In this document: positions 1,054 through 24,927 of the stretch, piece after piece
Position numbering within the stretch: the stretch's first letter is position 1
How the letters are laid out: the number at the start of each line of letters is the position of its first letter
Assembly (NCBI GenBank): GCA_016182615.1
Contig: JACPGF010000149.1
Coordinates: 1 to 59,632 of the forward strand
Origin: Ignavibacteriales bacterium
GTDB taxonomy: Bacteria > Bacteroidota > Ignavibacteria > Ignavibacteriales > Ignavibacteriaceae
Direction: 5' to 3'
DNA length: 59,632 bases
Translations under genes and position numbers: made by a program
The notes under the pieces: model-generated
Told to the model about the DNA's origin: nothing
The model's input: only the letters and a program-made list of their open reading frames with translations
The model's database searches: none

Positions 1054-1065
1054 TAAAGGTTTGAC

Positions 1066-1677
1066 ATGAAAAATCATGTAGAGATTTACAATCAGTTAGT
1101 ACCATACGTTATCGAGCAGACCGGACGCGGCGAGCGGGGCATGGACATTTACTCGCGCCTTCTCCGTGAAAGAATTATCTTTATCGGCTCGGCCATTGAT
1201 GACCATGTTGCAAGCGTTATTATCGCGCAGCTTATTTTTCTGGAAGCAGAAGATGCTGCCAAAGATATTTTCTTGTACATCAACTCGCCGGGCGGCAGCG
1301 TGTCTTCCGGGATGGCTATTTACGATACCATGCAGTACGTTAAACCCGATGTAGCCACCATTTGCGTGGGTTTGGCAGCATCAATGGGTGCAGTGTTGCT
1401 TGCTGGCGGCGCGGCTGAAAAACGCACCTCGTTACCCCATTCCAAGATTATGATTCACCAGCCTTGGATTGGCGGTATGCAGGGACAGACAACCGACATT
1501 CAGATTCAGGCAAAAGAAATGCTGAAGACCCGCGATGTTTTATACAATGTGCTTTCGAAGCATACCGGAAAAACATTTGATGAAATTATGAAGGATTGCG
1601 ACAGGGATTATTACATGACAGCCGCCGAGGCTATGGAGTATAAGCTCATCGACAACGTTCTTGATAAGCGTAAATAA
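1066..1677 (+). CDS. clpP: ATP-dependent Clp protease proteolytic subunit
   Basis: The 203-aa product has ClpP hallmarks: [21 protein letters not shown], catalytic Ser in GLAASMGA, His in IMIHQP, Asp in DRDYYM. Confidence 0.95.
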
Positions 1678-8311: not shown

Positions 8312-8950
8312 TTATACAGAGAAACAAATATACTTAATTGTTCTGCCTTGTGAAAGATGGAACTTTTCGAAACGTGTTTGCAGCATAATGTTCCCGGGAA
8401 CATCGTTTGCATTGTACAAATCAGCCGATGAAAAGTGAATGGTGCATTTTTCCCGTGCTGTTATTTTACACGCGTAATCAAATAAAATATCATCATCGGT
8501 TTTTAGATGTACTTTTCCACCCGGGATAAGAATTGCCTTATACACCTCCAGATACCGGGGATGCACGAGCATTGCTTTCATATTCTTCCGGTGCGGCAGT
8601 GGATTGGGGAAAGGAATATATATTTCATCAACCGAGGGAGTAGTAATTATCTCACGCAGCCTTTGAATTTGTGCCAGCAAAAAAGCCGCGTTGCGTACCC
8701 CCGCTTTATCGGCATCCTGAGCGGCGTTCCAAATCCGCGCACCGGCACGGTCAACGCCGATATAGTTCCTGCCGGGGTTTTGCAGTGCAAGGTCTATGGT
8801 GTATTCACCATTCCCGCAGCCAAGCTCTAAAGTGAAACGGCAATTGTTTGAAAAGTAAGCAGTAATTCTATCAATAATATCTTCCTGATCGGTATTAAAA
8901 ACGTTTGGTAGTGTACGTACTTCGGCCTGTTTTAGATGTTTTCTTCGCAT
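8312..8950 (-). CDS. trmB: tRNA (guanine-N7)-methyltransferase
   Basis: 212 aa with SAM motif LELGCGNGEY, then NYIGVD and IYIPFPNP, typical of TrmB. Confidence 0.8.
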   Translation of the reverse strand: MRRKHLKQAEVRTLPNVFNTDQEDIIDRITAYFSNNCRFTLELGCGNGEYTIDLALQNPGRNYIGVDRAGARIWNAAQDADKAGVRNAAFLLAQIQRLREIITTPSVDEIYIPFPNPLPHRKNMKAMLVHPRYLEVYKAILIPGGKVHLKTDDDILFDYACKITAREKCTIHFSSADLYNANDVPGNIMLQTRFEKFHLSQGRTIKYICFSV

Positions 8951-9438: not shown

Positions 9439-11301
9439 ATGGAAACAGTTTTGTTGATAGCAGCCGTTGTTTTACTTGTTGTAATTATTTTTCTTGTACT
9501 AAGGCCCCGGCCTGTTAATAACGATGCAAATAATCTGCTTATGCAGAAAATGACGGACATTCAGAACAGCCTGCAAAAAATCGAAAGCGGTCTGAAGGAA
9601 GATTTCCGCATAAACCGCGAGGAAAACTCGGGAAGCGCGAAAGCGAACCGCGAGGAACTCGGGCAGGGGCTGCGTGATATTAAATCGGAACTGTCACAAA
9701 CACTAGCCAATATTACCGGTAGTAATCAAAGTGCCATCGAATCGATAAACAAAACACTCGATGCAAAAATTGAACTGCTGACGAAAAAAATTGACGAGAA
9801 CAACACTGCAAACCGTGACACCCTTACCCGCAACCTGAAAGATTTTACCCTTGAGCAGCGCGGAAAATTTGAAGACTTGCGGACCGAGCAGCAGTCACTT
9901 AAAATACAAACAACAGACTTGCTTGAAAAAATTGCCGCCAGCGTGGAAAGTAAGCTGAACCTGATGTTTGAACAAAACCAGATAGAAAACTCTCTGCTGC
10001 GCGACACGCTGACTGCAACATTCAAGGGATTCCAGGATACGTTCTCGCAAAATGTTGAGGCCTTTAACACGCTGCAGCGCGATAAATTCGCCCGGCTGGA
10101 GGAAGATTTTGCAAAGCTTATTACCAACACCGAAAAAATATTCGAAGGCCTTAAAGTTTCAATCGATGAGCGTTTGCAAAAATCGCTCAAGGCGATAGAG
10201 GATTCCTCGAAGACCGATTCCGTTAATACCCGCGAAGCGCTTGTTTCTTCCTTGAAAACATTTCAGGAAGCATTTGACCGGAACGTAAAATCGTTTAATG
10301 ATGTACAGGTTGAAAAGTTCGGTAATCTCGAATCGAAACAAGACACGCTAATTAAAAACACCGAAAGCAAACTTGAGTTTATCCGCGTGACTGTTGAGGA
10401 AAAATTAGAGAAAACACTCAGCGACCGTCTGGGCCAAAGTTTTGAAACTGTCGGCAAGCAGCTTAACGAGGTTCAGAAAGGCTTAGGCGAAATGCAGACC
10501 CTCGCGCAGGACGTAGGCGGACTGAAAAAAGTGCTCAGCAACGTTAAAATGCGCGGCGGTATCGGTGAAGTGCAGCTTTCCATGCTGTTAGACCAGATTC
10601 TTGCCCCTGACCAGTATCAACCGAACGTGAAAACCAAACAAAACAGCAACGAAATTGTAGAGTTTGCCATTAAACTGCCCGGCCGTGATGATAACAACGT
10701 ACCGGTATGGCTGCCCGTCGATGCGAAATTCCCCAAGGACAAGTACGAAACGTTGCAAGCCGCGTATGACACCGGCGACACCGCGCTAATAGATACGGCA
10801 CAAAAAGACCTTGAAACAACCATTAAAAGGATGGCAAAAGACATACACGACAAATATATCGATCCCCCGAACACAACCGATTTTGGTATCATGTTCCTGC
10901 CGTTCGAAAGCCTGTTTGCCGAGGTTGTCCGCAAAGCAAGCCTGCTCGAGGAACTGAACAGGACATACAAGATTATCGTAACGGGTCCCACCACGCTCGC
11001 CGCGATTCTGAACAGTCTGCAAATGGGCTTTAAAACACTGGCCATACAAAAGCGCAGCAGCGAGGTTTGGAAAGTACTTGGCGCGGTTAAAAAAGAGTTC
11101 GAGCAGTTTGGCGGCTTGATGGAAAAGGCGCAAAACAACATACAAACCGGCCTTAACCAGCTTGATGATGTGATGGGCAAACGGACACGTGCAATACAAC
11201 GGCAGTTACGGAATGTCGAATCGACCAATGAAATAAGTCCTGTGGCTATACTACCGGGAGCAGCCCCTGCTGAACTGTTTGATGACGAAGCGGAGGAGTA
11301 A
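9439..11301 (+). CDS. rmuC: DNA recombination protein RmuC
   Basis: 620 aa with an N-terminal TM helix, a long coiled-coil region and a C-terminal RmuC-type domain (VEFAIKLPG...VWLPVDAKFP...FGIMFLPFESLFAE...IIVTGPTTL). Confidence 0.85.
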   Translation: METVLLIAAVVLLVVIIFLVLRPRPVNNDANNLLMQKMTDIQNSLQKIESGLKEDFRINREENSGSAKANREELGQGLRDIKSELSQTLANITGSNQSAIESINKTLDAKIELLTKKIDENNTANRDTLTRNLKDFTLEQRGKFEDLRTEQQSLKIQTTDLLEKIAASVESKLNLMFEQNQIENSLLRDTLTATFKGFQDTFSQNVEAFNTLQRDKFARLEEDFAKLITNTEKIFEGLKVSIDERLQKSLKAIEDSSKTDSVNTREALVSSLKTFQEAFDRNVKSFNDVQVEKFGNLESKQDTLIKNTESKLEFIRVTVEEKLEKTLSDRLGQSFETVGKQLNEVQKGLGEMQTLAQDVGGLKKVLSNVKMRGGIGEVQLSMLLDQILAPDQYQPNVKTKQNSNEIVEFAIKLPGRDDNNVPVWLPVDAKFPKDKYETLQAAYDTGDTALIDTAQKDLETTIKRMAKDIHDKYIDPPNTTDFGIMFLPFESLFAEVVRKASLLEELNRTYKIIVTGPTTLAAILNSLQMGFKTLAIQKRSSEVWKVLGAVKKEFEQFGGLMEKAQNNIQTGLNQLDDVMGKRTRAIQRQLRNVESTNEISPVAILPGAAPAELFDDEAEE

Positions 11302-11682: not shown

Positions 11683-14600
11683 ATGAGTATTAACTGGAAT
11701 AACATTAGAACAATAGGACCCTCTAAAAACGAAGGGTTTGAAGAGTTTGTTTGCCAACTTGCTAGAAAAGAAACTGCTCCTGACAGCTCGATCTTTATCA
11801 GAAAGGGAAAACCTGATGCCGGCGTTGAGTGCTTTAGGATTTTAGAAAATGGTGATGAATGGGCCTGGCAAGCAAAATATTTTACTGCCAGTCTTGAAAA
11901 AGCTCAGTGGCAACAACTGGATCATTCTGTAAACCGGGCAATCAAAGCACATCCTAATTTAAAAAAATATACTATAGCTATCCCAATTGATCCACCGGAT
12001 GCAAGAAATGCAAAGCAAATTTCAATGCTTGAGAGATGGGATGTGCATGTTAGGAAATGGACAAGTTTGGTCTCGAAAAAAGGTAAGACTATTGAAATTG
12101 TTCCGTGGTGGAGTTCTGATTTAATTGAGAAACTTCAAAAACCAGAAAATGTTGGGTTAACTTATTTCTGGTTTAATAAGGAAGAATTCACCGATAGCTG
12201 GTTTATAGAGCAAAATGAACTAGCTATTGCAGACCTAGGGGCACGGTATACCCAGAAACTCAATGTTGAACTTGAAATATCAAAAGTATTTAGCGGCCTC
12301 TCTCGCGATGAAATTTTCAGAAATAGATTTAACCAATTAATTGGAAAATTATTTCTAATTGGAAACAACCTACGATGTGAAGAAAAATTAATAGAAAATC
12401 TGCTCCGAAAGTTTAAAGATGTATTGAGTAAGATCACCATATTATATAATCGCATAAATCTTGTTGGTATTGAACCAATTCCGGTTTACAAACTTATCTG
12501 TTTTTTGAACCAATTGAATGATGTGATTGATTCCATAAGTGATATTCTGTTGGAAGAAGAAGACAAATTAATAATGCCCAATGAATATCATTTTAATAAA
12601 AAGTATGGTTCACAGATAACGCTTATTAGAAAGTTTAACAACTCTATTGGCGAATTAAGAGAATTTTTACAAAGTGCAGTGGTTGAATTGGCCGATAGAC
12701 CGTTTCTATTATTAACCGGAGAAGCTGGTGTTGGCAAATCTCATTTGATTGCCGATATTGTAAAAAGGCGCAATGTCGCCAATTTGAGAAGTCTTTTTCT
12801 GCTTGGACAGCACTTTGTTTCCGACGAAAATCCTTGGTCACAGATATTTTTAGGTCTGCAGCTTAAATGTTCGCTTGATGAGTTCCTAGGCGCTCTAGAT
12901 TCTAAAGCGCAAATAAGTGGAAATAGAATTGTCTTTTTTATTGATGCTATCAATGAAGGCAGGGGAAAATTCTTTTGGGGTAAGTATATAAATAGTTTTA
13001 TTGAGAAAATTAAAAAATATCAGTGGTTGGGGCTTGTTTTGTCTGTTCGCAGTACCTATGTTGACGTTATTTGGTCAAAAACGGAACTTATAGATGAATT
13101 TCTAATTTGCTATAATCATACTGGATTTAAGGATATAGAATTCGAAGCATCAAATGAATTTTTTAACTATTACAACATTCAACTTCCAAATGTTCCTTTA
13201 TTACATCCTGAATTTCAAAACCCGCTGTTTCTTAAATTATTCTGCGAAGGTTTAAGGAATGGTGGTTTCACCAAGATACCTGATGGCATGCAGGGTATAA
13301 CTACGATATTTGATTTTTATACCAGTAGTTTAAATAAAATCTTATCCAGCCCTGATCGATTAAACTATTCTAAGAATTTTAATATTATTGGTAAAGTTTT
13401 GGAGGCACTTGTTGCATATAAAACAAAGAACAAGATTTCCTACGTCCCCCTTGAAGATGCACTTAATATCGTTAATCAATTATCTGCTGAAGTTGGTATC
13501 CCTCATGGTGTCTTATTAGATGAGCTGCAATCAGAAGGAATTCTTACGGAAAATAGATATAGGCTTCCAAGCCATAATTATGAGTATGGATTAAACTTAG
13601 CATACGAAAGATTTGAAGATCATATTGCTGCAAATTTGATTATAACCAAATACCCTGATTTAGAAAATTCCTTCAAAGAAAATGGGGATTTATTCTATAT
13701 TGTTGACAGTGTCGGGGCGTGTTATTCTAACAAGGGCTTGATGGAGGCTTTATCTATTCAATTGCCTGAAAAAATCGGGAAAGAATTCTATGAAATAACT
13801 CCTCATTTAAAAAATGAATACCCCATAATTGAATGTTTTGTTCAGAGTTTGCTTTGGCGGAAAAATGAGACTATTTCACCAAAACTTTTAGATTTTATAA
13901 ATAACTTCGTATTCTCTTTTAATGGAACCCTTGATTTATTTTGGGGAACTGTTCTTTCTGTCTCAGCAATGCCCGGTCATTATTTTAATGCCAACTTTCT
14001 CCATAAGCAACTTTTTCCCTTGAGTTTGGCCAACAGAGATGCTTGGTGGACTATTTTTTTGAAGAAAATGTATTATAATAAATCTATCATTGAAAGATTT
14101 ATTTCTTGGATTTGGACCATAGAAAACAGAAGTTATATTTCTGATGAATCTGTAAAACTGACCAGTATTACCTTGGCGTGGTTTCATACAAGTACAAACA
14201 GAAAATTGCGGGATTCAGCCACCAAAGCATTAGTTTGTCTTTTGGAGGATCGAATAGCGGTTTTAATTAGTCTTTTAAAGGATTTTGAAGGGATTAGTGA
14301 CCCTTATGTTTATGAAAGATTGTTTGCTGTTGCCTACGGATGTGCTTTAAGAACCAGTCAGAAAGAAAAACTGTTGGGACTGAGCACATATATTTTCGAA
14401 ACAATTTTCAATACCAATGCCGAAGTGTATCCGCACATCCTACTCAGAGATTATGCCAGAGGTGTTATTGAATACACAGCTTTTCTGGGATATAAATTGG
14501 AATTTGATATTGAAAAGGCAAGACCACCTTATAGCAGCAGTTTCCCGACATATATACATTCCGATAAATATATAAAAAAGAAATACGGGGTTGACAGTGA

Positions 14601-15909
14601 CTCCGAAAATTTCAAGGATTATCATTGGGGGCAGGACTATATTCTGACATCCATGGTAACTGAGCAAACGAAAAAGATCTATGGCGATTTCGGAAGGTAC
14701 GTCTTTCAGAGAGCCTTGGGTTGTTGGGAATTAAATTGTAATACACTGAGCAATCTGGCAATTGATTTGATATTTGAGAAATACGGCTATGATAAAGAAA
14801 AGCATGGGGGATTTGATCGAGAATTGAGATCAGGTAGAGAAAATATTAGCAGTCCCAATGAAAGAATCGGGAAAAAATATCAATGGCTTGCATTCCATGA
14901 AATACTTGCGAGAGTCTCTGATAATTTCGCCATTAAAACAGAATTTAGCAAAGATACAGGTACTGATATAAAATATGAAGGAACTTGGGATCCATACGTG
15001 AGAGATATTGATCCATCTATTACCATGAAAAATATTGTATCTACAAATGAGCGTGGCTCAACTCATTTCTCGTGGGCAATTGAAAATCATGGAAATTGGG
15101 AGCTAAACAATAAGGACTGGCTTAAAACCACTTCGGATTTACCTGATATTGTGAAACTTCTTACTGTATCGGATAACATGAATTCAGACTGGTTAGTTTT
15201 ATCCGGTTATACAGAGTGGAACGAACCGACAAAACTTGGTTATGAAAAATGGGATTTACCTCAAAAAGAAATGATATATTCAATAAGAAGCTATTTGGCA
15301 CCAGAAGATGAATTTAAAACAATAGAGAACAGGTTTTTAACACAAGATTTTTTATATGCGCAATTACCTCAAGAAACAAATTGGTACGAGGTTTTCAGCA
15401 GAGAGTATTATTGGGCTCCGGCATATAATTATTTTAATCATGACTATTTTGGGAGTCCTGAGAGAGTACAGATATTCGATGAACAAACCAATGAATCAAT
15501 ATTAGATGTGATGATTACTTCTAAAGTATATTATTGGGAGAAAGGAATTGACCATTCAAAAGAAGAAGCAATCAGTATAATCCGCCCAAGCAGAAACATT
15601 TATGAGAATATGTCTTTGCAGTTTTCCAAAAATGAAGGTGAATTAACGGATGTTGACGGAAATTTGATTTGCTTTGATCCCTCCGTCAGTAATAAAACCA
15701 AACCGTCTCTATTGATTAAAAAACAACCTTTTTGGGAATTTTTAAAAAAGAATCATCTGCGTATTTTTTGGAGAATATCCGGAGAAAAAAGAGTGAGTGG
15801 TGGTTACAAAACAAAAAAGGATTTTCTTGGGCGACTTGAAATAAGAGGCAAATATTTATTAAACGAGGCGGGACAACTTGAAGGTCAAATTACGACACGA
15901 AATACTTAG
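11683..15909 (+). CDS. Large STAND-type P-loop NTPase with N-terminal Mrr-like PD-(D/E)xK nuclease domain (Avs/bNACHT-like candidate antiphage protein)
   Basis: 1408 aa. N-terminus FEEFVCQLARKE..KGKPDAGVECF..WAWQAKYF (D45, E49, Q63-x-K65). Walker A LLLTGEAGVGKSHL (aa 343-356, nt 12709-12750). Walker B IVFFIDAINEG (D421 at nt 12943). About 950 aa remain unassigned at the C-terminus. Sequence is visibly AT-richer than the flanks. Confidence 0.6.
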   Translation: MSINWNNIRTIGPSKNEGFEEFVCQLARKETAPDSSIFIRKGKPDAGVECFRILENGDEWAWQAKYFTASLEKAQWQQLDHSVNRAIKAHPNLKKYTIAIPIDPPDARNAKQISMLERWDVHVRKWTSLVSKKGKTIEIVPWWSSDLIEKLQKPENVGLTYFWFNKEEFTDSWFIEQNELAIADLGARYTQKLNVELEISKVFSGLSRDEIFRNRFNQLIGKLFLIGNNLRCEEKLIENLLRKFKDVLSKITILYNRINLVGIEPIPVYKLICFLNQLNDVIDSISDILLEEEDKLIMPNEYHFNKKYGSQITLIRKFNNSIGELREFLQSAVVELADRPFLLLTGEAGVGKSHLIADIVKRRNVANLRSLFLLGQHFVSDENPWSQIFLGLQLKCSLDEFLGALDSKAQISGNRIVFFIDAINEGRGKFFWGKYINSFIEKIKKYQWLGLVLSVRSTYVDVIWSKTELIDEFLICYNHTGFKDIEFEASNEFFNYYNIQLPNVPLLHPEFQNPLFLKLFCEGLRNGGFTKIPDGMQGITTIFDFYTSSLNKILSSPDRLNYSKNFNIIGKVLEALVAYKTKNKISYVPLEDALNIVNQLSAEVGIPHGVLLDELQSEGILTENRYRLPSHNYEYGLNLAYERFEDHIAANLIITKYPDLENSFKENGDLFYIVDSVGACYSNKGLMEALSIQLPEKIGKEFYEITPHLKNEYPIIECFVQSLLWRKNETISPKLLDFINNFVFSFNGTLDLFWGTVLSVSAMPGHYFNANFLHKQLFPLSLANRDAWWTIFLKKMYYNKSIIERFISWIWTIENRSYISDESVKLTSITLAWFHTSTNRKLRDSATKALVCLLEDRIAVLISLLKDFEGISDPYVYERLFAVAYGCALRTSQKEKLLGLSTYIFETIFNTNAEVYPHILLRDYARGVIEYTAFLGYKLEFDIEKARPPYSSSFPTYIHSDKYIKKKYGVDSDSENFKDYHWGQDYILTSMVTEQTKKIYGDFGRYVFQRALGCWELNCNTLSNLAIDLIFEKYGYDKEKHGGFDRELRSGRENISSPNERIGKKYQWLAFHEILARVSDNFAIKTEFSKDTGTDIKYEGTWDPYVRDIDPSITMKNIVSTNERGSTHFSWAIENHGNWELNNKDWLKTTSDLPDIVKLLTVSDNMNSDWLVLSGYTEWNEPTKLGYEKWDLPQKEMIYSIRSYLAPEDEFKTIENRFLTQDFLYAQLPQETNWYEVFSREYYWAPAYNYFNHDYFGSPERVQIFDEQTNESILDVMITSKVYYWEKGIDHSKEEAISIIRPSRNIYENMSLQFSKNEGELTDVDGNLICFDPSVSNKTKPSLLIKKQPFWEFLKKNHLRIFWRISGEKRVSGGYKTKKDFLGRLEIRGKYLLNEAGQLEGQITTRNT

Positions 15910-15972
15910 CTTAATAATTGAGGAGTAAAAATTTTACTATTTTTTATAAATTTAGAATATCTTAACTTATAA

Positions 15973-16434
15973 GTGAAGAAATTTAAAATTACCTCTGTTT
16001 ATTCCGGAAGTAAGACAGAAATCTATTCTGTTCAAATTGATGGTTCTGAGAAATCGGAATTCGAAAAATTCATTGAGCGTTTCTCTGAAACACATAGATC
16101 CGATGTTAATTATTTGGCGGATACGGTTCAGAAAATCGCTGATATTTTTGGTATTCGCGAGCAGTTCTTTAAGCCTCAGGGATTGGACGGCGTGTACCGT
16201 TTTATCATGCATCGCGACAAAAAAACATCTCTCCGTTTATATTGCATAAAATGGGGATCCGAGCTGCTTATTATAGGCGGCGGGGGTATAAAAGAAGTTA
16301 GAACCTGGCAGGAAAGCCACGAGTTAAGTAAAATAGTACGTGAATTGTCAAAAATAGATAAATATCTTTTAGACAATAAAATTGATATAAAAAATGCTGT
16401 TAAATCAAATGAAATATTTGATGAAGGAATATAA
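15973..16434 (+). CDS. Putative RelE/HigB (Gp49-like) superfamily toxin
   Basis: 153 aa. Core GVYRFIMHRDKKTSLRLYCIKWGSELLIIGGGGIKEVRT resembles the RelE/Gp49-type beta-sheet core. Its stop lies 1 nt before the XRE gene. Confidence 0.45.
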   Translation: MKKFKITSVYSGSKTEIYSVQIDGSEKSEFEKFIERFSETHRSDVNYLADTVQKIADIFGIREQFFKPQGLDGVYRFIMHRDKKTSLRLYCIKWGSELLIIGGGGIKEVRTWQESHELSKIVRELSKIDKYLLDNKIDIKNAVKSNEIFDEGI

Positions 16435-16435
16435 A

Positions 16436-16948
16436 ATGGCAATTAACAAATTTTTAGAAATATTACAAAAAATCCCTCAGGAAGTCAGTAGTTTCAACAG
16501 GCTTTCAATGGGTATCGCCGCTTTTCTGGACGATAGATTAAAAGAAAACGGCATGACACAAAAAGCCTTAGCTAATATCATGGCTAAAAAAGAGTCTGAA
16601 ATTAGCAAATGGATGGGTGGCAAACATAATTTTACCATTAAATCAATTGCCAATCTCGAAGCCGCATTAGGCACAGAAATACTATCGGTAAACCAAACAC
16701 AACCAATGCAGGGCAATGGCATTAATGACGTCTCCAATGAAGCAGTTATTATGAGACGGACATTTAACACTGTTAATCTACCTGCTCGGACAGCAATAAT
16801 ATTTATTTACCCCGAATTAGTTGAGCTAAGAACTCCGGGAACAGGAAATTCTTTGGTTAACGCAAGTACAAGGGCGGCTATTCTTAATGAATTAAACCTG
16901 AGTGCCGGAAACCATGAAACCATTAATTCTCAAGCAAGCTGGGCATAG
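16436..16948 (+). CDS. XRE-family HTH antitoxin with ~85-aa C-terminal extension
   Basis: ATG at 16436 is preferred to the listed 16394 start, which overlaps the toxin. HTH: LKENGMTQKALANIMAKKESEISKWMGGKHNFTIKSIANLEAALG. A long non-HTH tail follows, with the hydrophobic patch AIIFIYPELVEL. Confidence 0.7.
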   Translation: MAINKFLEILQKIPQEVSSFNRLSMGIAAFLDDRLKENGMTQKALANIMAKKESEISKWMGGKHNFTIKSIANLEAALGTEILSVNQTQPMQGNGINDVSNEAVIMRRTFNTVNLPARTAIIFIYPELVELRTPGTGNSLVNASTRAAILNELNLSAGNHETINSQASWA

Positions 16949-16950
16949 TA

Positions 16951-17424
16951 ATGCAGACAGAAATAAAAGAGCCGTTGTCTATTAGCTTTAATTTGAAACA
17001 GATACGGACACTTGAATTTTCGATTTCAAACCGTATTAATCAAAATTCGTTTGATGTATCTTTAGTCCAATTCAGAGTTTCCTTAGGTTATGAATTTAAT
17101 GCAGACTCTGATTTACTCGGAATTCAAACTACTGTTGAGGTATTTACCGATAATTCCGAACAGTTGAAAATATGTCACCTCATCACACTTATTACATTTC
17201 AAGTCACTGATTTAGGAAAAATATTTAGATCCTCAGAAAGCGAAATAACTGTCCCCGATATACTCATGCATACTTTTTTATCGTTAGCAATTTCTACAAC
17301 AAGAGGAATACTTACCGCTAAAACCGAGGGCACTGTTTTGCACGATTCATTTATGCCGGTAATTGATTTGCAGCAATTTCTTAGCCAAACAGATACCCCA
17401 AAAGGGAAGCTAATTATCCCCTAA
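16951..17424 (+). CDS. SecB-like chaperone candidate
   Basis: 157 aa (E. coli SecB is 155 aa). Hand alignment to SecB: [14 protein letters not shown] ~ [26 protein letters not shown] ~ [25 protein letters not shown] ~ [32 protein letters not shown] ~ [30 protein letters not shown] ~ APVNFDALF. It starts 2 nt after the antitoxin stop. Confidence 0.5.
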   Translation: [157 protein letters not shown]

Positions 17425-17459
17425 ACAAATCCAGATAAGCAGCAAATTCGAATTCAAGG

Positions 17460-17779
17460 GTTCGTTTCCATTCGGTTGTTTCGTGCAGTATTCCTAACCG
17501 GACAAAATCGGCTATAATGGCATTTGCCGTCGAACTGCTTATCTTTAATGCCTGCTGCACCTGTTGCAAATACCCTCGCAGAGCGGTATCTCCGGCGGAC
17601 AGCCAAAATTTATAAAACCATTTGCTGCTGCCTCGGTTGGTATCGATGCCCTCTTTTTAGAAATACACCCCGGCCCGAAAAACGCCCTGAGCGATGCCGC
17701 CACCCAACTGCCGCTAGAAGATGCCGAAGCACTTCTACGGAAAATTAAGCAGATTGATGATGTGGTAAAACACCGGTAA
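17460..17779 (+). pseudogene. kdsA: 5'-truncated, frameshifted remnant of kdsA (3-deoxy-8-phosphooctulonate synthase)
   Basis: HLLQIPSQSGISGGQPKFIKPFAAASVGIDALFLEIHPGPKNALSDAATQLPLEDAEALLRKIKQIDDVV matches the KdsA C-terminus (THxxQxPG..SGGxRxF...GLFxExHPxPxxAxxDG). A TAA stop at 17546 and a frame change lie upstream. There is no N-terminal half. Confidence 0.65.
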
Positions 17780-17969
17780 CCGCCGGGGGATTTGTTCGCG
17801 GAGTTTGGTCTATTTCGTCGCTTAATGAACCGAATAGCATGTAGTTAGGGTTTTATCCATTCCGCGCAATAATGTATCCGCACATCAATAATTAAAAACT
17901 CATAACCTGTCCGGCTGCATCCATGCATGACTGTTTCTTCCAGGCAGGTTACATGCGGGCGCAGACCGG

Positions 17970-18025
17970 CTCATCACTCCTTACTCATCACTCATCGCTC
18001 ATAATTCATCATTCCTAATTCATAA
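17970..18025 (-). repeat. Tandem heptamer array, ~8 units (minus-strand reading TTATGAA TTAGGAA TGATGAA TTATGAG CGATGAG TGATGAG TAAGGAG TGATGAG)
   Basis: Period-7 repeat read directly on the plus strand as CTCATCA CTCCTTA CTCATCA CTCATCG CTCATAA TTCATCA TTCCTAA TTCATAA. Confidence 0.75.
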
Positions 18026-18277: not shown

Positions 18278-19753
18278 ATGGATTTTGCCAAATTTTTAGC
18301 ATATACACGGGAATACAACCTTATTCCCGTGCACGAAACCATCGCAGCAGATTTGTTGACACCGGTCTCGGCCTACTTAAAGGTACGAAAGACCGATACT
18401 CCCGGCTTTCTGCTTGAATCGGTAGAGGGTACACTAAACCTTGCACGGTATTCATTTATTGGAGTTGAGCCCGAGAGGATTATCATGAACCGCGGCAGGG
18501 AAATTACCGAGATTACCCCGCAGGGTACAAGCACTATTGAAGGTGATGTTTTCGGGCACATAGAATCCATATTGCAGTCATACCACCAGCCAGCCATTGC
18601 CGAGCTGCCTAGTTTAAGCGGCGGCCTTGTCGGTTTTATCGGTTACGAGAATATGTCGCTTATCGAGCCTACCGTTCCCCGTAAATACAATTCCGGTTTC
18701 GCGTACGACTCCATTCTTGGCCTTTACAAAACATTGCTAGCATTCGACCATTACCGGCATCAGCTTATTATTATCGTTAATGTTTCCGTAACTGCGGATA
18801 CGAATCCCGAACAGGCATACTTGGATGCGAAAGCACAGATTAAAGCAATAAAAAAAGATTTGCGCCAGCAGCCTTTGCATATCAGGGATTTTACGGTCAC
18901 GGGTGATAAACAACCGTCATTCCCCATGGAAAAATTTTCATCGGATATTGCCGCGGCAAAACAACACATCCTCGAGGGTGATATATTTCAAATCGTGTTA
19001 AGCCGCCGCTTTTCAACAACATTCGATGGCGACCTGATACAAGTTTACCGCGCGCTCCGCATTATCAACCCATCTCCCTACATGTACTTTATGGAGTTTG
19101 CCAACGATACGGTGGTGATAGGAACCTCGCCTGAAAATTTATTAAAGGTACAGGGTGGTGTTGCAGAACTGCTGCCGATTGCCGGTACACGAAAACGGGG
19201 CAGCACGGAAGAGCATGACAAGCGGCTTGAGGCTGAGCTGCTCGCCGACCCCAAAGAACTGGCCGAGCACACCATGCTTGTTGATTTGGGAAGAAACGAC
19301 CTTGGCCGTGTATGCGGTTATGATTCGGTACACGTGGTTGAACAAATGCAGATTCACCGCTATTCGCATGTAATGCACATCGTTTCACGGGTTGAAGGGA
19401 AATTGAATGCAGAGAGCAGTGTCTATGATGCACTAAAAGCCTGCTTCCCCGCGGGCACTGTAACCGGCGCGCCAAAAATACGTGCCATGCAATTGATTGA
19501 TGCAATGGAAGATACCGAGCGCAACATCTATGCAGGCGCGGCTGGTTATTTTGACTTCAAGGGCAACATGGATATGTGCATTGCCATTAGAACATTTTTT
19601 GCAAAAGGCAAAACGCTGTACTGGCAGGCAGGCGCTGGCATTGTTGCAGACAGCAAGGCGGAATTGGAAGCATTGGAAATACGGAACAAAGCAGCAGTAC
19701 TGGTAAAAGCATTAGAATTCGCGGAGGTGATAGATGAAAATTCTGGTAATTGA
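18278..19753 (+). CDS. trpE: Anthranilate synthase component I
   Basis: 491 aa with TrpE motifs LLESVEG, INPSPYMYF, GTRKRG, GAPKIRAM and GYFDF. Confidence 0.95.
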   Translation: MDFAKFLAYTREYNLIPVHETIAADLLTPVSAYLKVRKTDTPGFLLESVEGTLNLARYSFIGVEPERIIMNRGREITEITPQGTSTIEGDVFGHIESILQSYHQPAIAELPSLSGGLVGFIGYENMSLIEPTVPRKYNSGFAYDSILGLYKTLLAFDHYRHQLIIIVNVSVTADTNPEQAYLDAKAQIKAIKKDLRQQPLHIRDFTVTGDKQPSFPMEKFSSDIAAAKQHILEGDIFQIVLSRRFSTTFDGDLIQVYRALRIINPSPYMYFMEFANDTVVIGTSPENLLKVQGGVAELLPIAGTRKRGSTEEHDKRLEAELLADPKELAEHTMLVDLGRNDLGRVCGYDSVHVVEQMQIHRYSHVMHIVSRVEGKLNAESSVYDALKACFPAGTVTGAPKIRAMQLIDAMEDTERNIYAGAAGYFDFKGNMDMCIAIRTFFAKGKTLYWQAGAGIVADSKAELEALEIRNKAAVLVKALEFAEVIDENSGN

Positions 19754-20300
19754 TAATTACGATTCGTTCACGTACAACCTTGTACAATTGATTGGTCACT
19801 ACGAAACGGACATAATTGTAAAACGCAATGATGCTGTCACGGCTGAAGAAATAACGGCAATGCATCCGGACAGGATACTGGTTTCACCCGGGCCGGGCAG
19901 GCCGGAGAATTCGAACATTTCCTTAACCGCTATCCGTGATTTCGGTAAAACCATTCCCGTGCTTGGTGTGTGCCTCGGCCATCAGGCAATAGGTCTTATC
20001 TTTGGCGGCAATGTTATCAAGGCTCCCGTGCTGATGCATGGTAAAACATCCTCCATTATCCACGATGGTAAAAGTATTTTCAGCGGCGTTCCGCAGGGGT
20101 TTACTGCCACACGGTATCATTCGCTCATTATCGAAAAGAGCAGCCTTCCCGCTGAACTTACCGTAACTGCAGAAACCGAAGATAGTATAATTATGGGTGT
20201 AAGGCACAAGCATTACCCCATTGAAGGAATGCAGTTTCATCCTGAATCGGTTTTGACAACCGAAGGCACTAACCTAATTAAAAACTGGTTATTACAATGA
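19734..20300 (+). CDS. trpG: Anthranilate synthase component II (glutamine amidotransferase)
   Basis: 188 aa starting ILVIDNYDSFTYNL, with catalytic GVCLGHQ and HPES. GGAGGTG Shine-Dalgarno upstream. Overlaps the trpE end by 20 nt. Confidence 0.9.
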   Translation: MKILVIDNYDSFTYNLVQLIGHYETDIIVKRNDAVTAEEITAMHPDRILVSPGPGRPENSNISLTAIRDFGKTIPVLGVCLGHQAIGLIFGGNVIKAPVLMHGKTSSIIHDGKSIFSGVPQGFTATRYHSLIIEKSSLPAELTVTAETEDSIIMGVRHKHYPIEGMQFHPESVLTTEGTNLIKNWLLQ

Positions 20301-21310
20301 AGCAGATACTCGAAAAAATCATAGAGAAAGAACATCTCAGCAGGCAGGAAGCCTATGAAACCATGATGCGCATCATGTCGGGTGCTATCAATAACGGGCA
20401 GTTGGCAGGATTTTTAACCGCACTAAAGTCCAAGGGCGAAACAGCTGAGGAGTTGGCAGGATTTGTAGAGGCAATGCGCGAGCATGCTATTCCGCTGCCG
20501 CATGACAGAAAAGACGCAATAGATGTATGTGGGACAGGCGGTGATGCAAGCGGCACGTTTAATATTTCAACTGCCGTGGCATTTGTTGTTGCCGGTGCAG
20601 GCGTGCCAATGGCAAAGCATGGCAACCGCTCCATCTCAAGCAAATGCGGCAGTTCGGATGTGTTGCAGCAGCTTGGTGTTGATATTGGCCTTTCAATAGC
20701 AACAGCATCAAAAGCGTTAAACGAAACGGGTATCGTATTTTTATTTGCTCCGCAGTATCATCCGGCAATGCGGCACGCGGGAGAAGTGCGCAAGCAGCTT
20801 GCAGTTAAAACTGTTTTTAATATGCTCGGCCCGCTGTGTAATCCGGCGGGAGTAAAAAGGCAGCTCATCGGGGTGTATAATATCACCGCGGCCCGCAGCA
20901 TGTGCGATGCCGCCGCGTATCTCAATTTCGAGCGGGTCAGTTTTGTTTGCACCGATGGAAAGTTTGATGAAGTTTTACTGCATGGCAGGGCGCATGTTTT
21001 CGATAGAAAAGGCAGCGGCACCGTGAACGGATATAGTTTATCCGCGAAGGATTTCGGTTTGGCGGAAGTGCCCCTTGCAGAATTGCAGGGCGGTGATGCA
21101 CTGGAGAACGCTGCAATTATAATGCGGATTTTACGTGACAAAGTAAAAGATGCCGCATTTAACACGGTAGTTGCCAATGCCGCCTTGGCTTTGCAAATAG
21201 CTGGTAAAGCCGAGACGCTGTTAGAATGCGTGGCAATCGCGGAAGAATCGGTACTCTCAGGAGCAGCCTATGGCAAGCTGGTTAAGTTACAGGAATTACG
21301 GAGTGTATAA
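20297..21310 (+). CDS. trpD: Anthranilate phosphoribosyltransferase
   Basis: 337 aa with DVCGTGGDASGTFNISTA and KHGNRSISSKCGSSDVL. ATGA overlap with trpG. Confidence 0.95.
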   Translation: MKQILEKIIEKEHLSRQEAYETMMRIMSGAINNGQLAGFLTALKSKGETAEELAGFVEAMREHAIPLPHDRKDAIDVCGTGGDASGTFNISTAVAFVVAGAGVPMAKHGNRSISSKCGSSDVLQQLGVDIGLSIATASKALNETGIVFLFAPQYHPAMRHAGEVRKQLAVKTVFNMLGPLCNPAGVKRQLIGVYNITAARSMCDAAAYLNFERVSFVCTDGKFDEVLLHGRAHVFDRKGSGTVNGYSLSAKDFGLAEVPLAELQGGDALENAAIIMRILRDKVKDAAFNTVVANAALALQIAGKAETLLECVAIAEESVLSGAAYGKLVKLQELRSV

Positions 21311-22098
21311 TGAGTATTCTACAAAAAATCATCGAAACAAAAAAAGATGAAGTGCACTCATTAAAAACCGGGATATATCCCTCCCTGTGGAAAAACAATC
21401 CCGCTCTTCAGGCACCGTGCAGAGGGTTCGGTGCTGCACTTGCCCGGAAGGAATTGTCAATCATCGCAGAAGTGAAAAAAGCCAGCCCCTCAAAGGGATT
21501 AATACGGATGGATTTTCATCCGGTAGAAATTGCAAAGGCGTATGAAAAAGGAGGAGCGGCATGTATCTCGGTGCTTACCGATAAAAACTATTTTCAAGGA
21601 GATATAAACCATCTTGCACAAATCAGGAAATCGGTGGCTTTGCCGCTGCTCCGCAAAGATTTTATTATTGACGATGTGCAGTTAACCGAAGCGAAAATGA
21701 ACGGCGCGGACGCGGTGCTTTTAATTGCAGAAGTGCTGAGCACGTCTCAAATAAAAGAGCTCACGCTCTATGCACAGGCGTTGCACATGGATGTCCTTTT
21801 GGAAACACACCATGCCAGTGAACTTGAAAAAATAGATTTTTCCGTTAATTCCATCATCGGTATCAACAACCGCGATTTGAATACTTTTATTACCGACATC
21901 AATACAACGCTAAATATAGCGAAGCTGTTGCCAAAGCACGTTATCGTGGTATCGGAAAGCGGAATAGAGAACAAGGAAACCGTGCAGCAGATTAACCGGG
22001 CAGGCATACATGCGGTTTTAGTCGGCGAGCATTTTATGCGCGTGCAGGATATTAGTGCAGCCCTTGCAGAGATGAAGGAATGGGCACATGAAAATTAA
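21310..22098 (+). CDS. trpC: Indole-3-glycerol phosphate synthase
   Basis: 262 aa with IIAEVKKASPSKG, LRKDFIID and GINNRDL. TAATG overlap with trpD. Confidence 0.9.
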   Translation: MSILQKIIETKKDEVHSLKTGIYPSLWKNNPALQAPCRGFGAALARKELSIIAEVKKASPSKGLIRMDFHPVEIAKAYEKGGAACISVLTDKNYFQGDINHLAQIRKSVALPLLRKDFIIDDVQLTEAKMNGADAVLLIAEVLSTSQIKELTLYAQALHMDVLLETHHASELEKIDFSVNSIIGINNRDLNTFITDINTTLNIAKLLPKHVIVVSESGIENKETVQQINRAGIHAVLVGEHFMRVQDISAALAEMKEWAHEN

Positions 22099-22696
22099 AG
22101 TTTGCGGCATAACCAATACTGCCGATGCACACGCGTGTGAGAGGAACGGAGCGGATGCACTCGGTTTTGTTTTCTATAACAAAAGCAAAAGATACATAGC
22201 ACCGGAAAATGCCGCGGAAATTTGCAAAGCACTTTCGGCTTTCACCACAACCGTAGGCGTTTTTGTTCATACCCCTGTTAATGAAGTTAACAGGATAATG
22301 AAGCAGGCGAAACTGCATGTCGCGCAAATTATTGCCGGTGACCTTACCCCGTATCACGAGCAATGCGAATATCCATTCTATCATTGTGTTCGCATTGATG
22401 ACGATTTTAATTTTGCATGTATAACAATAGATAACGGCAGAAACATTTTGCTTGATACCTATAGCAAAAGCGCTTACGGCGGCACAGGAACCAAATTTAA
22501 CTGGAGTAAAATACCCATGCAAATACGGCACGCGGTAATTCTTGCAGGCGGCATTGGTGAAGGTGACCTGAAAACTATTAAACAAACGATTAATCCCTAC
22601 GGCGTTGATGTTTCATCATCATTGGAAATATCTCCCGGCGTAAAAGACTTAGTAAAGATTGAACAATTTTTTAAAACAGTTAATGCAATAAGGTAA
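22088..22696 (+). CDS. trpF: Phosphoribosylanthranilate isomerase
   Basis: 202 aa with MKIKVCGIT...GADALGFVF and GGTG..F.W...LAGG. Confidence 0.85.
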   Translation: MKIKVCGITNTADAHACERNGADALGFVFYNKSKRYIAPENAAEICKALSAFTTTVGVFVHTPVNEVNRIMKQAKLHVAQIIAGDLTPYHEQCEYPFYHCVRIDDDFNFACITIDNGRNILLDTYSKSAYGGTGTKFNWSKIPMQIRHAVILAGGIGEGDLKTIKQTINPYGVDVSSSLEISPGVKDLVKIEQFFKTVNAIR

Positions 22697-22700
22697 CACG

Positions 22701-23723
22701 ATGTTAGTAATTTTAAAATTGGATGCAGCCCCGGAACATGTATCAAAAATTTGCGAAAAGATACAAAGCCGCGAATGTACCGCGCACGTTATACCGGGCG
22801 CTCAACGGGTTGCCATAGGTGTAACCGGCAACATGGCAAACGTTTCCCGCGATGATTTTCTGCGCATGGAATCTGTGGTGGATGTCGTCCGCGTCTCAAA
22901 AAAATATAAACTCGTCAGTAGGGAAATGAAACCGGATGATTCGGTTATTGATGTACAGGGTGAAAAAATCGGGGGCAGTGCATTGCAGATTATCGCCGGG
23001 CCGTGCTCTGTTGAAAGCAGGCAGCAGCTTCATGATATCGCGGGTCCGCTGCGGGAAATGGGTATAAAGTTTTTCCGTGCAGGTGCATACAAGCCGCGCA
23101 CCAGTCCTTATGCATTCCAAGGCATGAAAGAGAAGGGCCTTGAATTGCTTGATGAAATTAAAAAAGAGTATGGTATGCGCATTGTTACCGAATTGAAAGA
23201 CTCGGAAACCTTAGAGCAGGTACTTGCAACCGCGGACATACTGCAAATAGGCGCGCGTAACATGCAAAATTTTTCTCTGCTCGAAAAAATCGGGCAGACA
23301 TGTAAGCCAGTTTTCCTGAAGCGCGGGCTGGCAGCAAGCATTGAAGACCTGTTGATGAGCGCAGAGTATATTCTTTCGCAGGGTAATTACGAGGTTATCC
23401 TCTGCGAGCGCGGTATCCGCACCTTCGAAACCATGACCCGCAACACGCTTGACCTGAACGCGATTCCAGTTATCAGGGCAACATCGCACCTGCCCGTGTT
23501 TGTTGACCCCTCGCATGGTATTGGTATTTGGGATATGGTACCGCCGATGGCAATGGCTGGTGTGGCTTGCGGTGCAAACGGACTGATGATTGAAGTGCAC
23601 AACAAACCGGAAGAAGCATTGTCTGACGGGTTCCAATCGTTAACACTGAAGAACATGAAAGCCCTGTTGGAAAAACTGAAAGAACTTGCCCCCATCGTTG
23701 GCAAAACTTTGGAGTGCAAATGA
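22701..23723 (+). CDS. 3-deoxy-7-phosphoheptulonate (DAHP) synthase, type I-beta, with N-terminal regulatory domain
   Basis: 340 aa. Core [10 protein letters not shown]...[17 protein letters not shown]...GARNMQN...KRG...DPSH. An ~70-aa ferredoxin-like N-terminal extension resembles the Thermotoga-type enzyme. Confidence 0.85.
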
Positions 23724-24925
23724 GCGGCACATTAAACTATTCTCTGCCCGATAGAGCGGGCCACTTTGGCATATACGGCGGCAAATATGTGCCTGAAACA
23801 TTAATTGCACCCTTGGCTGAGCTTGAGGCAGTGTATCAAAAAGCGGTACACGATGATATCTTTCAGAAAACACTTATGGATTTGCATAGCGAATACACGG
23901 GCCGCCCGACACCGCTTACCTACGCTGAGCGTTTAACGGAATATTACGGAACGGGAAGAATTTATCTAAAGCGTGAAGACCTTTGCCACACAGGTGCACA
24001 CAAAATCAATAACGCGCTTGGGCAGATACTGCTTGCAAAGCAACTTGGCAAAACGCGCATCATCGCGGAAACCGGAGCCGGGCAGCACGGAGTGGCAACG
24101 GCAACAGTTTGTGCAAAGTTCGGATTGCACTGTATTGTGTATATGGGCGAAACAGACATGCAAAGGCAAAGCCTGAATGTTTTCCGCATGAAACTGCTCG
24201 GGGCCGAAGTACGCCCTGTAACCTCGGGCAGCCGCACCCTTAAGGATGCAACCAACGAGGCAATACGGGATTGGGTTGGCAACGTGCACAACACGCATTA
24301 TATTATCGGCTCTGTTGTTGGCCCGCATCCGTACCCCATGATCGTGCGCGATTTTCAATCGATAATAGGCCGTGAGACAAAACAGCAGATTTTGCAAAGA
24401 GAGCAAAAACTTCCGAGCTATATTCTGGCATGCGTAGGGGGTGGCAGTAACGCGGCAGGGATTTTTTATCCATTCATTCAGGATACCGGTGTAAAGCTCA
24501 TTGGCATCGAGGCCGCCGGGCATGGCGTGCATACCGGCAAGCACAGTGCTACGCTTACCTTGGGCAGGCATGGCGTATTTCACGGTATGCTCACATATCT
24601 GCTGCAGGATGCGGATGGGCAAGTGCAGGAAGCCCATTCCATTTCCGCCGGGCTTGACTATCCCGGTGTTGGCCCCGAGCATAGTTACCTGAAAGACTCC
24701 GGCCGGGTTGCATACGCTTCAATCGATGACACGCAGGCACTCAAGGCGGTCAGCCTGATGAGTTTAAAAGAGGGTATATTACCCGCGCTTGAAACAGCTC
24801 ATGCAATAGCATACCTCGAGACACTCATGCCAATACTTAGCACTGCTGATATTGTAGTTGTTAACATTAGCGGCCGGGGCGATAAAGACCTGAACACCAT
24901 CATACAAAACATCTCAGTGGATTAA
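23720..24925 (+). CDS. trpB: Tryptophan synthase beta chain
   Basis: PLP-lysine motif HTGAHKINN, plus GAGQHG and GGGSNA. ATG at 23720 overlaps the upstream TGA (ATGA); the ORF track lists a GTG two codons earlier. Confidence 0.95.
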
Positions 24926-24927
24926 AC

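Follow-up and report, generated by a model that had tools for sequence, protein, structure and literature searches.

A gene in a small low-GC island of an Ignavibacteriales genome very probably encodes Avs2 (AVAST type 2), an antiviral STAND NTPase, in its common form with an Mrr-like nuclease. We put the probability of this reading at about 0.88. The gene lies in the 59,632-nucleotide stretch of DNA that was analyzed (the window). It is a complete ATG-to-stop open reading frame, and its extent and length, as given in the original prediction, are confirmed by the ORF list and the translation. The protein is intact and belongs to the Avs2 family over its full length. Its parts follow the order PD-(D/E)xK nuclease, helical extension, STAND NTPase, helical TPR-type domain, and beta-rich C-terminal sensor (Table 1). 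Every part downstream of the nuclease is homologous to EcAvs2, the structure of which has been solved. The AF2 models, the homology to 9O4E, and the motifs bear out the architecture proposed originally, in which a nuclease is followed by a STAND NTPase and a large sensor.

Table 1. Features of the Avs2 gene and its surroundings (window coordinates)
Feature	Coordinates	Strand	Basis
Avs2 gene, 1408 aa plus stop	11683..15909	+	NF041813, PDLC02162, ORF translation
Predicted Mrr-like PD-(D/E)xK nuclease effector, aa 1 to ~165 (boundary approximate)	11683..12177	+	AF2, Foldseek, motif residues
Helical extension between effector and NTPase, aa ~166-338 (boundaries approximate)	12178..12696	+	EcAvs2 alignment, AF2
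STAND NTPase module NBD-HD1-WHD, aa ~339-657 (boundaries approximate)	12697..13653	+	Walker motifs, EcAvs2 ATPase alignment, AF2
Alpha-helical TPR-type sensor domain, aa ~658-1081 (boundaries approximate)	13654..14925	+	9o4e_A alignment, AF2
Beta-strand-rich C-terminal sensor, aa ~1082-1408	14926..15906	+	phmmer to 9o4e_A, AF2
Three-gene cassette, PADLOC candidate defense system PDC-M64	15973..17424	+	PADLOC
Cassette genes	15973-16434; 16394/16436-16948 (HTH protein); 16951-17424	+	
3' remnant (~75 codons) of a DAHP-synthetase-I-family gene (KdsA/AroG-like), right island edge	17549..17779	+	Pfam

Assignment to the Avs2 family

The protein scores 1340.4 bits against the NCBIfam equivalog for Avs2 (NF041813), for which the curated cutoff is 1000. 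Six Avs2 models of PADLOC match it, all at E<=2.6e-159. The match to PDLC02162 runs end to end (aa 1-1405 on model positions 1-1372 of 1379; 1339 bits), and PDLC02164 gives 1480 bits. The family HMM E-values are 0. The cryo-EM structure of EcAvs2 (PDB 9o4e_A, 'AVAST type 2 Avs2') is matched at E=4.8e-278, with aa 169-970 and 1033-1403 aligned; the part aligned to 9o4e_A residues 165-966 gives E=5e-197. Some of the full-length homologs carry the NCBI name Avs2, and the nearest homolog is only 55% identical. The gene had been predicted to encode a single-gene antiphage sensor of the Avs type, and the equivalog, PADLOC, and 9O4E matches agree in making it an Avs2. Avs2 with an Mrr-like dsDNA nuclease is the commonest form of the family, and most Avs2 homologs use such nucleases (PMC13601566).

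The N-terminal nuclease

The N-terminus is confidently predicted to have a PD-(D/E)xK nuclease fold. In the AF2 model (pLDDT 89.5), the order of secondary structure is H-E-E-E-H-E, and a restriction-endonuclease-like alpha/beta core carries the E...D...(E/Q)xK residues. The candidate catalytic residues are E20/E21 in FEEFVCQLARKE (aa 19-30), D45 and E49 in KGKPDAGVECF (aa 41-51), and Q63 and K65 in WAWQAKYF (aa 60-67). Each of these six is kept in 98-103 of 114 homologs (about 86-90%). Among 120 homologs, D45, E49, Q63, and K65 are kept in 107-108. The nuclease motif residues are invariant or near-invariant in alignment A1.

For aa 1-179, the best Foldseek match is the N-terminal Mrr-like nuclease of EcAvs4 (PDB ID: 8dgf; E=5e-5, probability 1.00, TMq 0.61), with 19% identity over 172 aligned columns. 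A weak tail of matches (E 0.01-0.2) contains EcoO109I, Can2, Card1, Hjc, McrC, and AF1548, intermixed with unrelated folds. As in our protein, the EcAvs4 nuclease is placed N-terminal to the STAND NTPase. The Avs4 sensor, which recognizes the portal protein, has no relation to that of Avs2. The original prediction had named both the Pfam profile Mrr_cat and structure prediction as ways to check the nuclease. The latter, together with Foldseek, points to the PD-(D/E)xK fold. No Pfam family matches aa 1-190 at E<=1, Mrr_cat (PF04471) included, and the domain has no sequence match in the PDB. The term 'Mrr-like' therefore describes the fold and the motif and does not denote membership in a profile-defined family.

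Helical extension and STAND NTPase

The segment between effector and NTPase, for which the name helical extension has been used (PMC13601566), aligns with EcAvs2 from residue 165 onward. The AF2 model starts at aa 300, and the part of the extension that it covers is helical. In the NTPase, the Walker A motif GEAGVGKS occupies aa 346-353 (nt 12718-12741) and the Walker B motif IVFFIDAINEG aa 416-426 (D421 at nt 12943). K352, S353, and D421 are invariant (120 of 120 homologs). All the nuclease, P-loop, and Walker B motifs noted originally match in sequence and coordinates, and they are conserved among 114-120 homologs. Calling the module NACHT-like was too specific. Pfam NACHT (PF05729) gives 12.1 bits against a cutoff of 26.7, and the match covers the P-loop only (aa 342-364); the best sub-threshold matches are nSTAND6 at the top and AAA_16. 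When aa 300-1408 are modeled with AF2 (pLDDT 84.5), the best structural match is Avs3 (8dgc), followed by NLRC4, Cdc6/Orc1, and MalT.

The sensor domains

The last ~950 residues had been described as unassignable. This is true by eye only; the tools show that the region is homologous to two domains of EcAvs2, the TPR domain and the C-terminal sensor. No Pfam model covers the sensor region. In the AF2 model the TPR-type domain is all-helical and the C-terminal sensor is beta-rich. The C-terminal sensor matches 9o4e_A residues 1111-1478 at E=2e-81 (phmmer). Searched alone against cluster representatives at 50% identity, it finds 1905 relatives, and 486 of these reach E<=1e-30; wherever the listed match is full length, the sensor match lies at the C-terminal end.

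Seven of the nine EcAvs2 residues that contact the terminase or the bridging ATP are kept, if T1128 to S is counted as conservative. D981, R1130, W1266, E1362, E1444, and E1462 are identical. In the TPR-type domain, D1002 of the YGDFGRY motif corresponds to EcAvs2 D981, and S1050, R1052, and N1054 of the loop RSGRENI correspond to T1128, R1130, and R1132. In the C-terminal sensor, W1190, E1286, G1288, E1368, and E1386 correspond to W1266, E1362, E1364, E1444, and E1462. The kept positions comprise all four direct terminase contacts together with D1002, R1052, and S1050. Of the five published ligands of the bridging ATP, two are replaced (R1132 by N1054 and E1364 by G1288), and ATP bridging or the trigger range may therefore differ as well. 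At the R1132 position, 104 of 120 homologs have R and only 2 have N. The E1364 position is E in 73 and G in 29 of the 120; with G this common, the change to G1288 falls inside the normal variation of the family. The N/G pair is unique to this protein in the set.

Genomic context

The Avs2 gene forms an exchangeable cassette within a small defense island of low GC content on the chromosome of a poorly sampled bacterium. Between about 11400 and 17400 (~6 kb), GC content is 0.31-0.39, versus 0.45-0.50 on either side, which agrees with the AT-richness noted originally. Genes adjoining Avs2 homologs include Avs4, AbiE, DpdF, PsyrT, HEC-06, SoFic, and AriA. Where the island ends on the right, GC climbs from ~0.35 to 0.48 over roughly 17200-17600, immediately upstream of the gene remnant. 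The remnant matches Pfam PF00793 at positions 221-269 of 270 (E=3e-5) and has an in-frame stop upstream. Two T9SS sorting domains in the window point to the Bacteroidota/FCB group.

The neighbor of Avs2 had been taken for a toxin-antitoxin module. The three-gene cassette is real, but its identity as a toxin-antitoxin module is not borne out. Its only significant matches are to PADLOC PDC-M64 (6e-32, 5e-27, and 7e-15). Pfam recognizes no toxin, antitoxin, or SecB-like chaperone domain in it; the two outer genes have no Pfam match, and the middle gene has a borderline HTH_3. The profile of the 157-aa protein did not find SecB in the PDB, and hhalign against SecB gave a probability of 0.2%. Neither a type II toxin-antitoxin nor a tripartite TAC is supported for this cassette, in which none of their recognizable domains were found and which matches PDC-M64 instead.

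Comparison with known systems

EcAvs2 from E. coli (PDB ID: 9O4E; PMC13601566) is collinear with our protein through the helical extension, STAND NTPase, TPR domain, and beta-rich C-terminal sensor, and the Walker motifs are kept. Its own effector is uncharacterized and unrelated to the Mrr-like nuclease seen here, and aa 1-168 are unaligned. Between the GDFxRY motif and the GTGRGR loop, EcAvs2 also contains ~85 additional residues, a helical insert that is absent here. KpAvs2 from Klebsiella pneumoniae (PMC11564622) is alike by its reported architecture of Mrr-family endonuclease, STAND NTPase, and Avs2-type C-terminal domain. Its tested catalytic lysines K71 and K337 are, by description, analogous to K65 and K352. 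However, the operon of KpAvs2 also encodes a radical-SAM protein and Avap2, neither of which flanks our gene, and no Avap2-type accessory partner was identified near it.

VcAvs2-trypsin-MBL (preprint 10.64898/2026.08.25.746987) has the Avs2 sensor and NTPase, but there a trypsin-like protease activates a separate MBL nuclease, whereas the Mrr-like nuclease here is fused. SeAvs3 (PDB ID: 8DGC) is an Avs that senses the terminase and has a nuclease as its effector. Among full-length structural matches in the Foldseek library it ranks first (E=7e-9), at a sequence identity of only 11-12%. Its nuclease, however, is Cap4-like, and its TPR domain is longer and contacts both domains of the terminase, without bridging ATP (PMC13601566; preprint 10.64898/2026.08.25.746987).

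Proposed mechanism

The trigger, oligomerization, and DNA cleavage proposed here for the protein are drawn from homology. In the uninfected cell it would be an autoinhibited monomer, by analogy with EcAvs2, KpAvs2, VcAvs2-trypsin, and EcAvs4. During infection, the large terminase subunit of the phage would dock with its ATPase domain, as in the relatives, in a sensor pocket to which the helical extension, the TPR domain, and the C-terminal sensor all contribute. As in KpAvs2, certain small phage proteins might be bound by the sensor, too. After binding, the ATP-bound NTPase domains would build a tetramer, in which the N-terminal nuclease domains would meet and become active. Non-specific degradation of DNA by the active nucleases would then lead to abortive infection.

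Several of these steps have been described in relatives. EcAvs2-terminase tetramers contain bridging ATP (PMC13601566). In VcAvs2-trypsin-MBL, the TPR domain and the CTD hold the terminase ATPase domain between them, along with two ATP molecules, the tetramer is flat, and the recognition mode is the same as in EcAvs2 (preprint 10.64898/2026.08.25.746987). KpAvs2, with its Mrr nuclease, degrades DNA and causes abortive infection, and the mutations K71A and K337A abolish defense (PMC11564622).

Alternative explanations

The cassette could form one multi-gene system with Avs2, comparable to the KpAvs2 operon with its Avap accessory proteins. The genes share a strand and an equally low GC content across a gap of 63 nt, and KpAvs2 requires the accessory protein Avap2 against some phages (PMC11564622). 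However, tblastn finds no match of the three cassette proteins in 19 loci carrying Avs2 homologs, and a related contig (L020) has the cassette at 93% DNA identity beside a nucleotidyltransferase gene in place of Avs2. PADLOC, moreover, treats PDC-M64 as a separate candidate system. We consider a joint system very improbable, and we think just as little of the view that the gene has lost its function and is decaying together with its island. The gene remnant and the two substituted ligand positions would fit decay, but the ORF is intact and spans the whole family model, all nuclease and NTPase catalytic residues are intact, and the AF2 models are confident. The original prediction also held that the C-terminal recognition module of this nuclease-STAND protein might come from an undescribed clade. 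This is almost certainly wrong. The missing Pfam model and the 55% identity of the nearest homolog could be cited for it, but it is refuted by the sensor alignment to EcAvs2, the many sensor relatives, the seven kept contact residues, and a whole-protein score above the curated equivalog cutoff.

A different question is whether the sensing of this Avs2 is shifted. N1054 and G1288 could mean that the trigger is recognized without bridging ATP, or that phage proteins other than the terminase are preferred; the triggers could then be small proteins like Ksap1/2, which bind mainly the C-terminal sensor. The rare N and the unique N/G combination would agree with this. The EcAvs2 triple mutant R1132A/D981A/E1364A substantially loses defense, but the single mutants R1132A or E1364A retain it in full (PMC13601566). 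In VcAvs2, mutations of basic residues that contact ATP2 weaken activation and tetramerization (preprint 10.64898/2026.08.25.746987). There is also a precedent in KpAvs2, the sensor of which accepts several unrelated triggers (PMC11564622). Given the kept terminase and ATP contacts and the frequency of G at the E1364 position, we regard shifted sensing as unlikely.

Conclusion

The gene belongs to the already characterized Avs2 family and does not represent a new kind of system. It is rather improbable that the protein is a natural Avs2 variant that senses phage proteins without bridging ATP or with a shifted trigger spectrum. If it were, such a variant would offer a handle on the determinants of trigger specificity in Avs2.

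Assignment to the Avs2 Family

On sequence comparison, the 1408-aa protein is assigned to Avs2, and PADLOC, NCBIfam and the PDB, three independent curated resources, concur. Six PADLOC Avs2 models match the protein (E≤2.6e-159), and model PDLC02162 spans aa 1-1405 (model positions 1-1372 of 1379). On the NCBIfam equivalog NF041813 ("AVAST type 2 anti-phage system protein Avs2"), whose curated cutoff is 1000 bits, the protein reaches 1340.4 bits. The sole match in the PDB sequence search was 9o4e_A (Avs2, 1484 aa; E=4.8e-278), the E. coli protein EcAvs2 in complex with PhiV-1 terminase (PMC13601566). Two blocks align: aa 169-970 with chain residues 165-966, and aa 1033-1403 with chain residues 1111-1478. 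Pfam alone leaves the protein nearly blank, with sub-threshold P-loop matches only (nSTAND6, AAA_16, NACHT at 12 bits), which accounts for the failure of the original prediction, made without database searches, to assign the last ~950 residues. The ORF coordinates and motifs quoted there are all in place, and NF041813, PADLOC and 9o4e_A confirm its general reading of an Avs-type nuclease-STAND antiphage sensor. The protein adds a rather divergent new member to a well-known and structurally characterised family.

Table. Coordinates of the Avs2 gene, its motifs and the neighboring features
Feature	Position	Strand	Remark
tig, clpP	22-1677		
trmB	8312-8950	-	
rmuC	9439-11301	+	620 aa as listed
Avs2 ORF	ATG at 11683, stop ends at 15909	+	1408 aa; from ORF list and translation
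Motif FEEFVCQLARKE	aa 19-30 of Avs2	+	nuclease domain
Motif KGKPDAGVECF	aa 41-51 of Avs2	+	D45, E49
Motif WAWQAKYF	aa 60-67 of Avs2	+	Q63, K65
Motif GEAGVGKS	aa 346-353; nt 12718-12741	+	
Motif IVFFIDAINEG	aa 416-426		D421 at nt 12943
PDC-M64 gene 1	15973-16434	+	153 aa; PADLOC 6e-32
PDC-M64 gene 2	16436-16948	+	HTH protein, ~171-184 aa; PADLOC 5e-27
PDC-M64 gene 3	16951-17424	+	157 aa; PADLOC 7e-15
DAHP-synthetase-I-family (KdsA/AroG-like) 3' remnant	17549-17779	+	last ~75 residues; right island edge
trp operon	18278 to 25713		

N-Terminal Nuclease Effector

Residues 1-168 could not be aligned to 9O4E, as the effector of EcAvs2 is unusual and uncharacterised. The AlphaFold2 model of aa 1-179 (pLDDT 89.5, pTM 0.85) was compared with the PDB using Foldseek. 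EcAvs4 gave the best match, with the Mrr-like nuclease at its N-terminus (8dgf; E=5e-5, probability 1.00, TMq 0.61, over 172 aligned columns). The weak matches that follow (E 0.01-0.2) include several PD-(D/E)xK nucleases (EcoO109I, Can2, Card1, Hjc, McrC, AF1548, VRR-NUC and NucS) among unrelated folds. In a comparison of 114 full-length homologs, 98-103 (~86-90%) conserve each of the residues E20, E21, D45, E49, Q63 and K65. For D45, E49, Q63 and K65, the count in a second homolog set is 107-108 of 120. A 40-sequence alignment shows no variation at E21, D45, E49, Q63 and K65 and almost none at E20. Homologs without these residues appear to carry other N-terminal domains. The model, the 8dgf match and the conserved motif residues together bear out the PD-(D/E)xK nuclease that had been called by eye.

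The Pfam search proposed at that time for Mrr_cat gave no match; on aa 1-190, Pfam reports no family for the nuclease domain. A phmmer search of aa 1-179 against PDB sequences returned noise only, and structure prediction was thus needed to confirm the fold. "Mrr-like" is therefore a statement at the level of the fold only. Most Avs2 homologs are reported to carry Mrr-like dsDNA nucleases (PMC13601566), so that an Mrr-like nuclease joined to an Avs2 body is the canonical Avs2 form.

NTPase and C-Terminal Sensor

EcAvs2 has been described in five parts, including the effector, a large helical extension and the ATPase (NBD, HD1, WHD); the last is a beta-strand-rich "C-terminal sensor" (PMC13601566). 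In the AlphaFold2 model of aa 300-1408 (43-sequence alignment; mean pLDDT 84.5, pTM 0.84), an alpha/beta NBD is followed by helical and winged-helix elements, a long all-helical stretch and a beta-rich domain, the same order as in EcAvs2. Foldseek matched this model to Avs3 (8dgc, E=7e-9) and then to NLRC4/NAIP, Cdc6/Orc1, MalT and other AAA+/STAND ATPases. The Foldseek PDB library runs to April 2026 and is without 9O4E, so the comparison to EcAvs2 is a sequence alignment.

The C-terminal recognition module had been considered unassigned and possibly undescribed. This is not supported by the 9o4e_A alignment, nor by a phmmer search of aa 1033-1408 against 1.84 billion 50%-identity representatives, which retrieved 1905 proteins at E≤0.001, of which 486 reach E≤1e-30. 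The full-length proteins among the matches listed (~1200-1750 aa) carry the sensor match at their C-terminal end. The module is thus widespread and already described, and is no new clade.

Residues Contacting Terminase and the Bridging ATP

We mapped the nine EcAvs2 residues that touch terminase or the bridging ATP at its interface (PMC13601566), with counts over 120 homologs. D981 (D1002 here, within a near-invariant YGDFGRY motif), R1130 (R1052), W1266 (W1190), E1362 (E1286), E1444 (E1368) and E1462 (E1386) are kept, and T1128 is conservatively changed to S1050. The two that differ are R1132, which is N1054 here (R in 104/120 homologs, N in 2/120), and E1364, which is G1288 (E in 73/120, G in 29/120). 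The sequence around aa 1050-1054 (14830-14844) reads RSGRENI where the Avs2 loop is G(S/T)GRGR, and that at aa 1288 (15544-15546) reads WEKG against WEEE. The N1054/G1288 pair was found in no other homolog of the 120 and is the sole departure of this protein from the family norm. EcAvs2-type long forms have a helical insert of ~85 residues between GDFxRY and the GTGRGR loop; this is absent here and from most Avs2 homologs.

R1132 and E1364 are bridging-ATP ligands in EcAvs2, where defence withstands R1132A or E1364A alone but is substantially reduced when both are combined with D981A (PMC13601566). The substitutions may be neutral, given that each single mutation is tolerated, or they may weaken ATP bridging, given the impairment of the triple mutant.

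Proposed Mode of Action

In EcAvs2, the helical extension, TPR domain and C-terminal sensor form a pocket that binds the terminase ATPase domain with a "bridging ATP" within the interface, and the NTPase domains assemble a flat tetramer (PMC13601566). VcAvs2-trypsin is reported to show the same recognition mode and to be auto-activated by deletion of its TPR domain and CTD (preprint 10.64898/2026.08.25.746987), so the sensor is also autoinhibitory. The Klebsiella pneumoniae protein KpAvs2, which has an Mrr-family nuclease as here, degrades DNA non-specifically on infection and causes abortive infection. Either K71A (nuclease) or K337A (Walker A) inactivates it, and its triggers include small non-terminase phage proteins (PMC11564622). 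By homology, the protein studied here would be an autoinhibited monomer. Binding of the ATPase domain of a phage large terminase would lead to ATP-dependent tetramerisation, and the tetramer would switch on the nuclease.

Homologs and Their Neighbors

The closest homolog found is 55% identical. Full-length homologs come from Bacteroidota, Cloacimonadota, Bacillota, Gammaproteobacteria and one Methanobacteriaceae MAG, a spread that agrees with the extensive horizontal transfer reported for Avs2 (PMC13601566). We scanned 121 ORFs lying ≤7 kb from Avs2 homologs at 15 loci with PADLOC. Matches include Avs4, AbiEi/AbiEii, DpdF, PsyrT, HEC-06, SoFic, AriA and others; those to DndA/SspA are probably housekeeping cysteine desulfurases. 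The expectation that homologs lie near defence genes holds to the extent that such neighbors occur at these loci; the scan was uncontrolled and therefore does not establish statistical enrichment.

A Low-GC Island with Cassette Exchange

The window is chromosomal. GC content is 0.31-0.39 from about 11400, just 3' of rmuC, to about 17400-17500, against 0.45-0.50 on either side, in agreement with the AT-rich region originally noted. It climbs from about 0.35 to 0.48 over roughly 17200-17600, directly 5' of the DAHP-synthetase-I remnant. This remnant is preceded by an in-frame stop and is 38% identical to the C-terminus of an intact 340-aa ORF (22701-23723) in the trp operon.

The neighboring genes had been taken for a toxin-antitoxin module. 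That identity is unsupported, and the three genes match PDC-M64, a candidate defence system of PADLOC. A TAC system (toxin-antitoxin-SecB-like chaperone) was also considered and found no support in the PDB profile search or in hhalign against SecB (probability 0.2%). The 157-aa protein has four detectable homologs only.

A related 2.6-kb public contig (L020, from Logan SRR11476867) was compared over L020:547-2554 with 15887-17993 of the window. Identity is 93% with 15887-17528 and 85% with 17611-17993, so that the contig has the same PDC-M64 cassette and remnant. Its 5' part carries a gene for a 112-aa nucleotidyltransferase (NTP_transf_2) in place of Avs2. The two sequences become homologous ~22 nt ahead of the Avs2 stop codon, so that the last ~22 nt of the gene are shared. 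As read from the aligned sequences, this junction indicates cassette exchange. None of the three PDC-M64 proteins has a match in 19 Avs2-homolog loci. Together with the replacement in L020, this identifies Avs2 as an independent, exchangeable cassette of a small defence hotspot. Synteny was compared on the right side, through L020, the RmuC homologs on the left being too distant.

Direct or inverted repeats that could serve as att sites or TIRs gave short, chance-level matches only at the flanks. No integrase or transposase was seen within the island, nor any tRNA or Rfam RNA anywhere in the window, and thus no feature of these kinds accounts for the mobility of Avs2. Scanning the island for sigma-70 promoters and terminators gave counts at about chance level, and such a scan would say little if the host uses Bacteroidota-type promoters.

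Several features of the surrounding sequence were also recorded. The start of RmuC is probably further downstream, the identical database protein having 586 aa against the 620 aa listed; its weak PADLOC match to RTasRmuC of DRT systems (5e-7) probably reflects the shared RmuC domain. Over near-full length, the nearest RmuC homologs share ~58-62% identity (up to 75% in partial alignments), which points to a poorly sampled lineage. The exact TrpE protein has no database record. An imperfect tandem array of three copies of a ~21-nt CTCATCA/TTCATAA-like unit (17970-18025, +) lies in the intergenic region 5' of trpE and could be a regulatory leader. A 795-aa protein (46946-49336, -) combines a [FeFe]-hydrogenase-like domain at its N-terminus (aa ~3-308) with a methyl-accepting chemotaxis signalling domain. 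It presumably resembles the hydrogenase-MCP fusions, putatively sensory, that the classification of [FeFe] hydrogenases already includes. Two secreted proteins (38558-43186 and 44607-46196, +), one of them a 1542-aa subtilisin-like protease, have T9SS type A sorting domains, which suggests a chromosome of the Bacteroidota/FCB group.

Significance

The label Avs2 (Mrr-like nuclease form) can be assigned with confidence, and in itself has little importance past annotation. Of some minor value, the protein adds a divergent Avs2, sharing ≤55% identity with any sequence found, from a sparsely sampled lineage that probably belongs to the FCB group, and the locus clearly illustrates how cassettes are exchanged at a defence hotspot. 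Its natural replacements of two bridging-ATP ligands could be of use in structure-function studies of Avs2 recognition.
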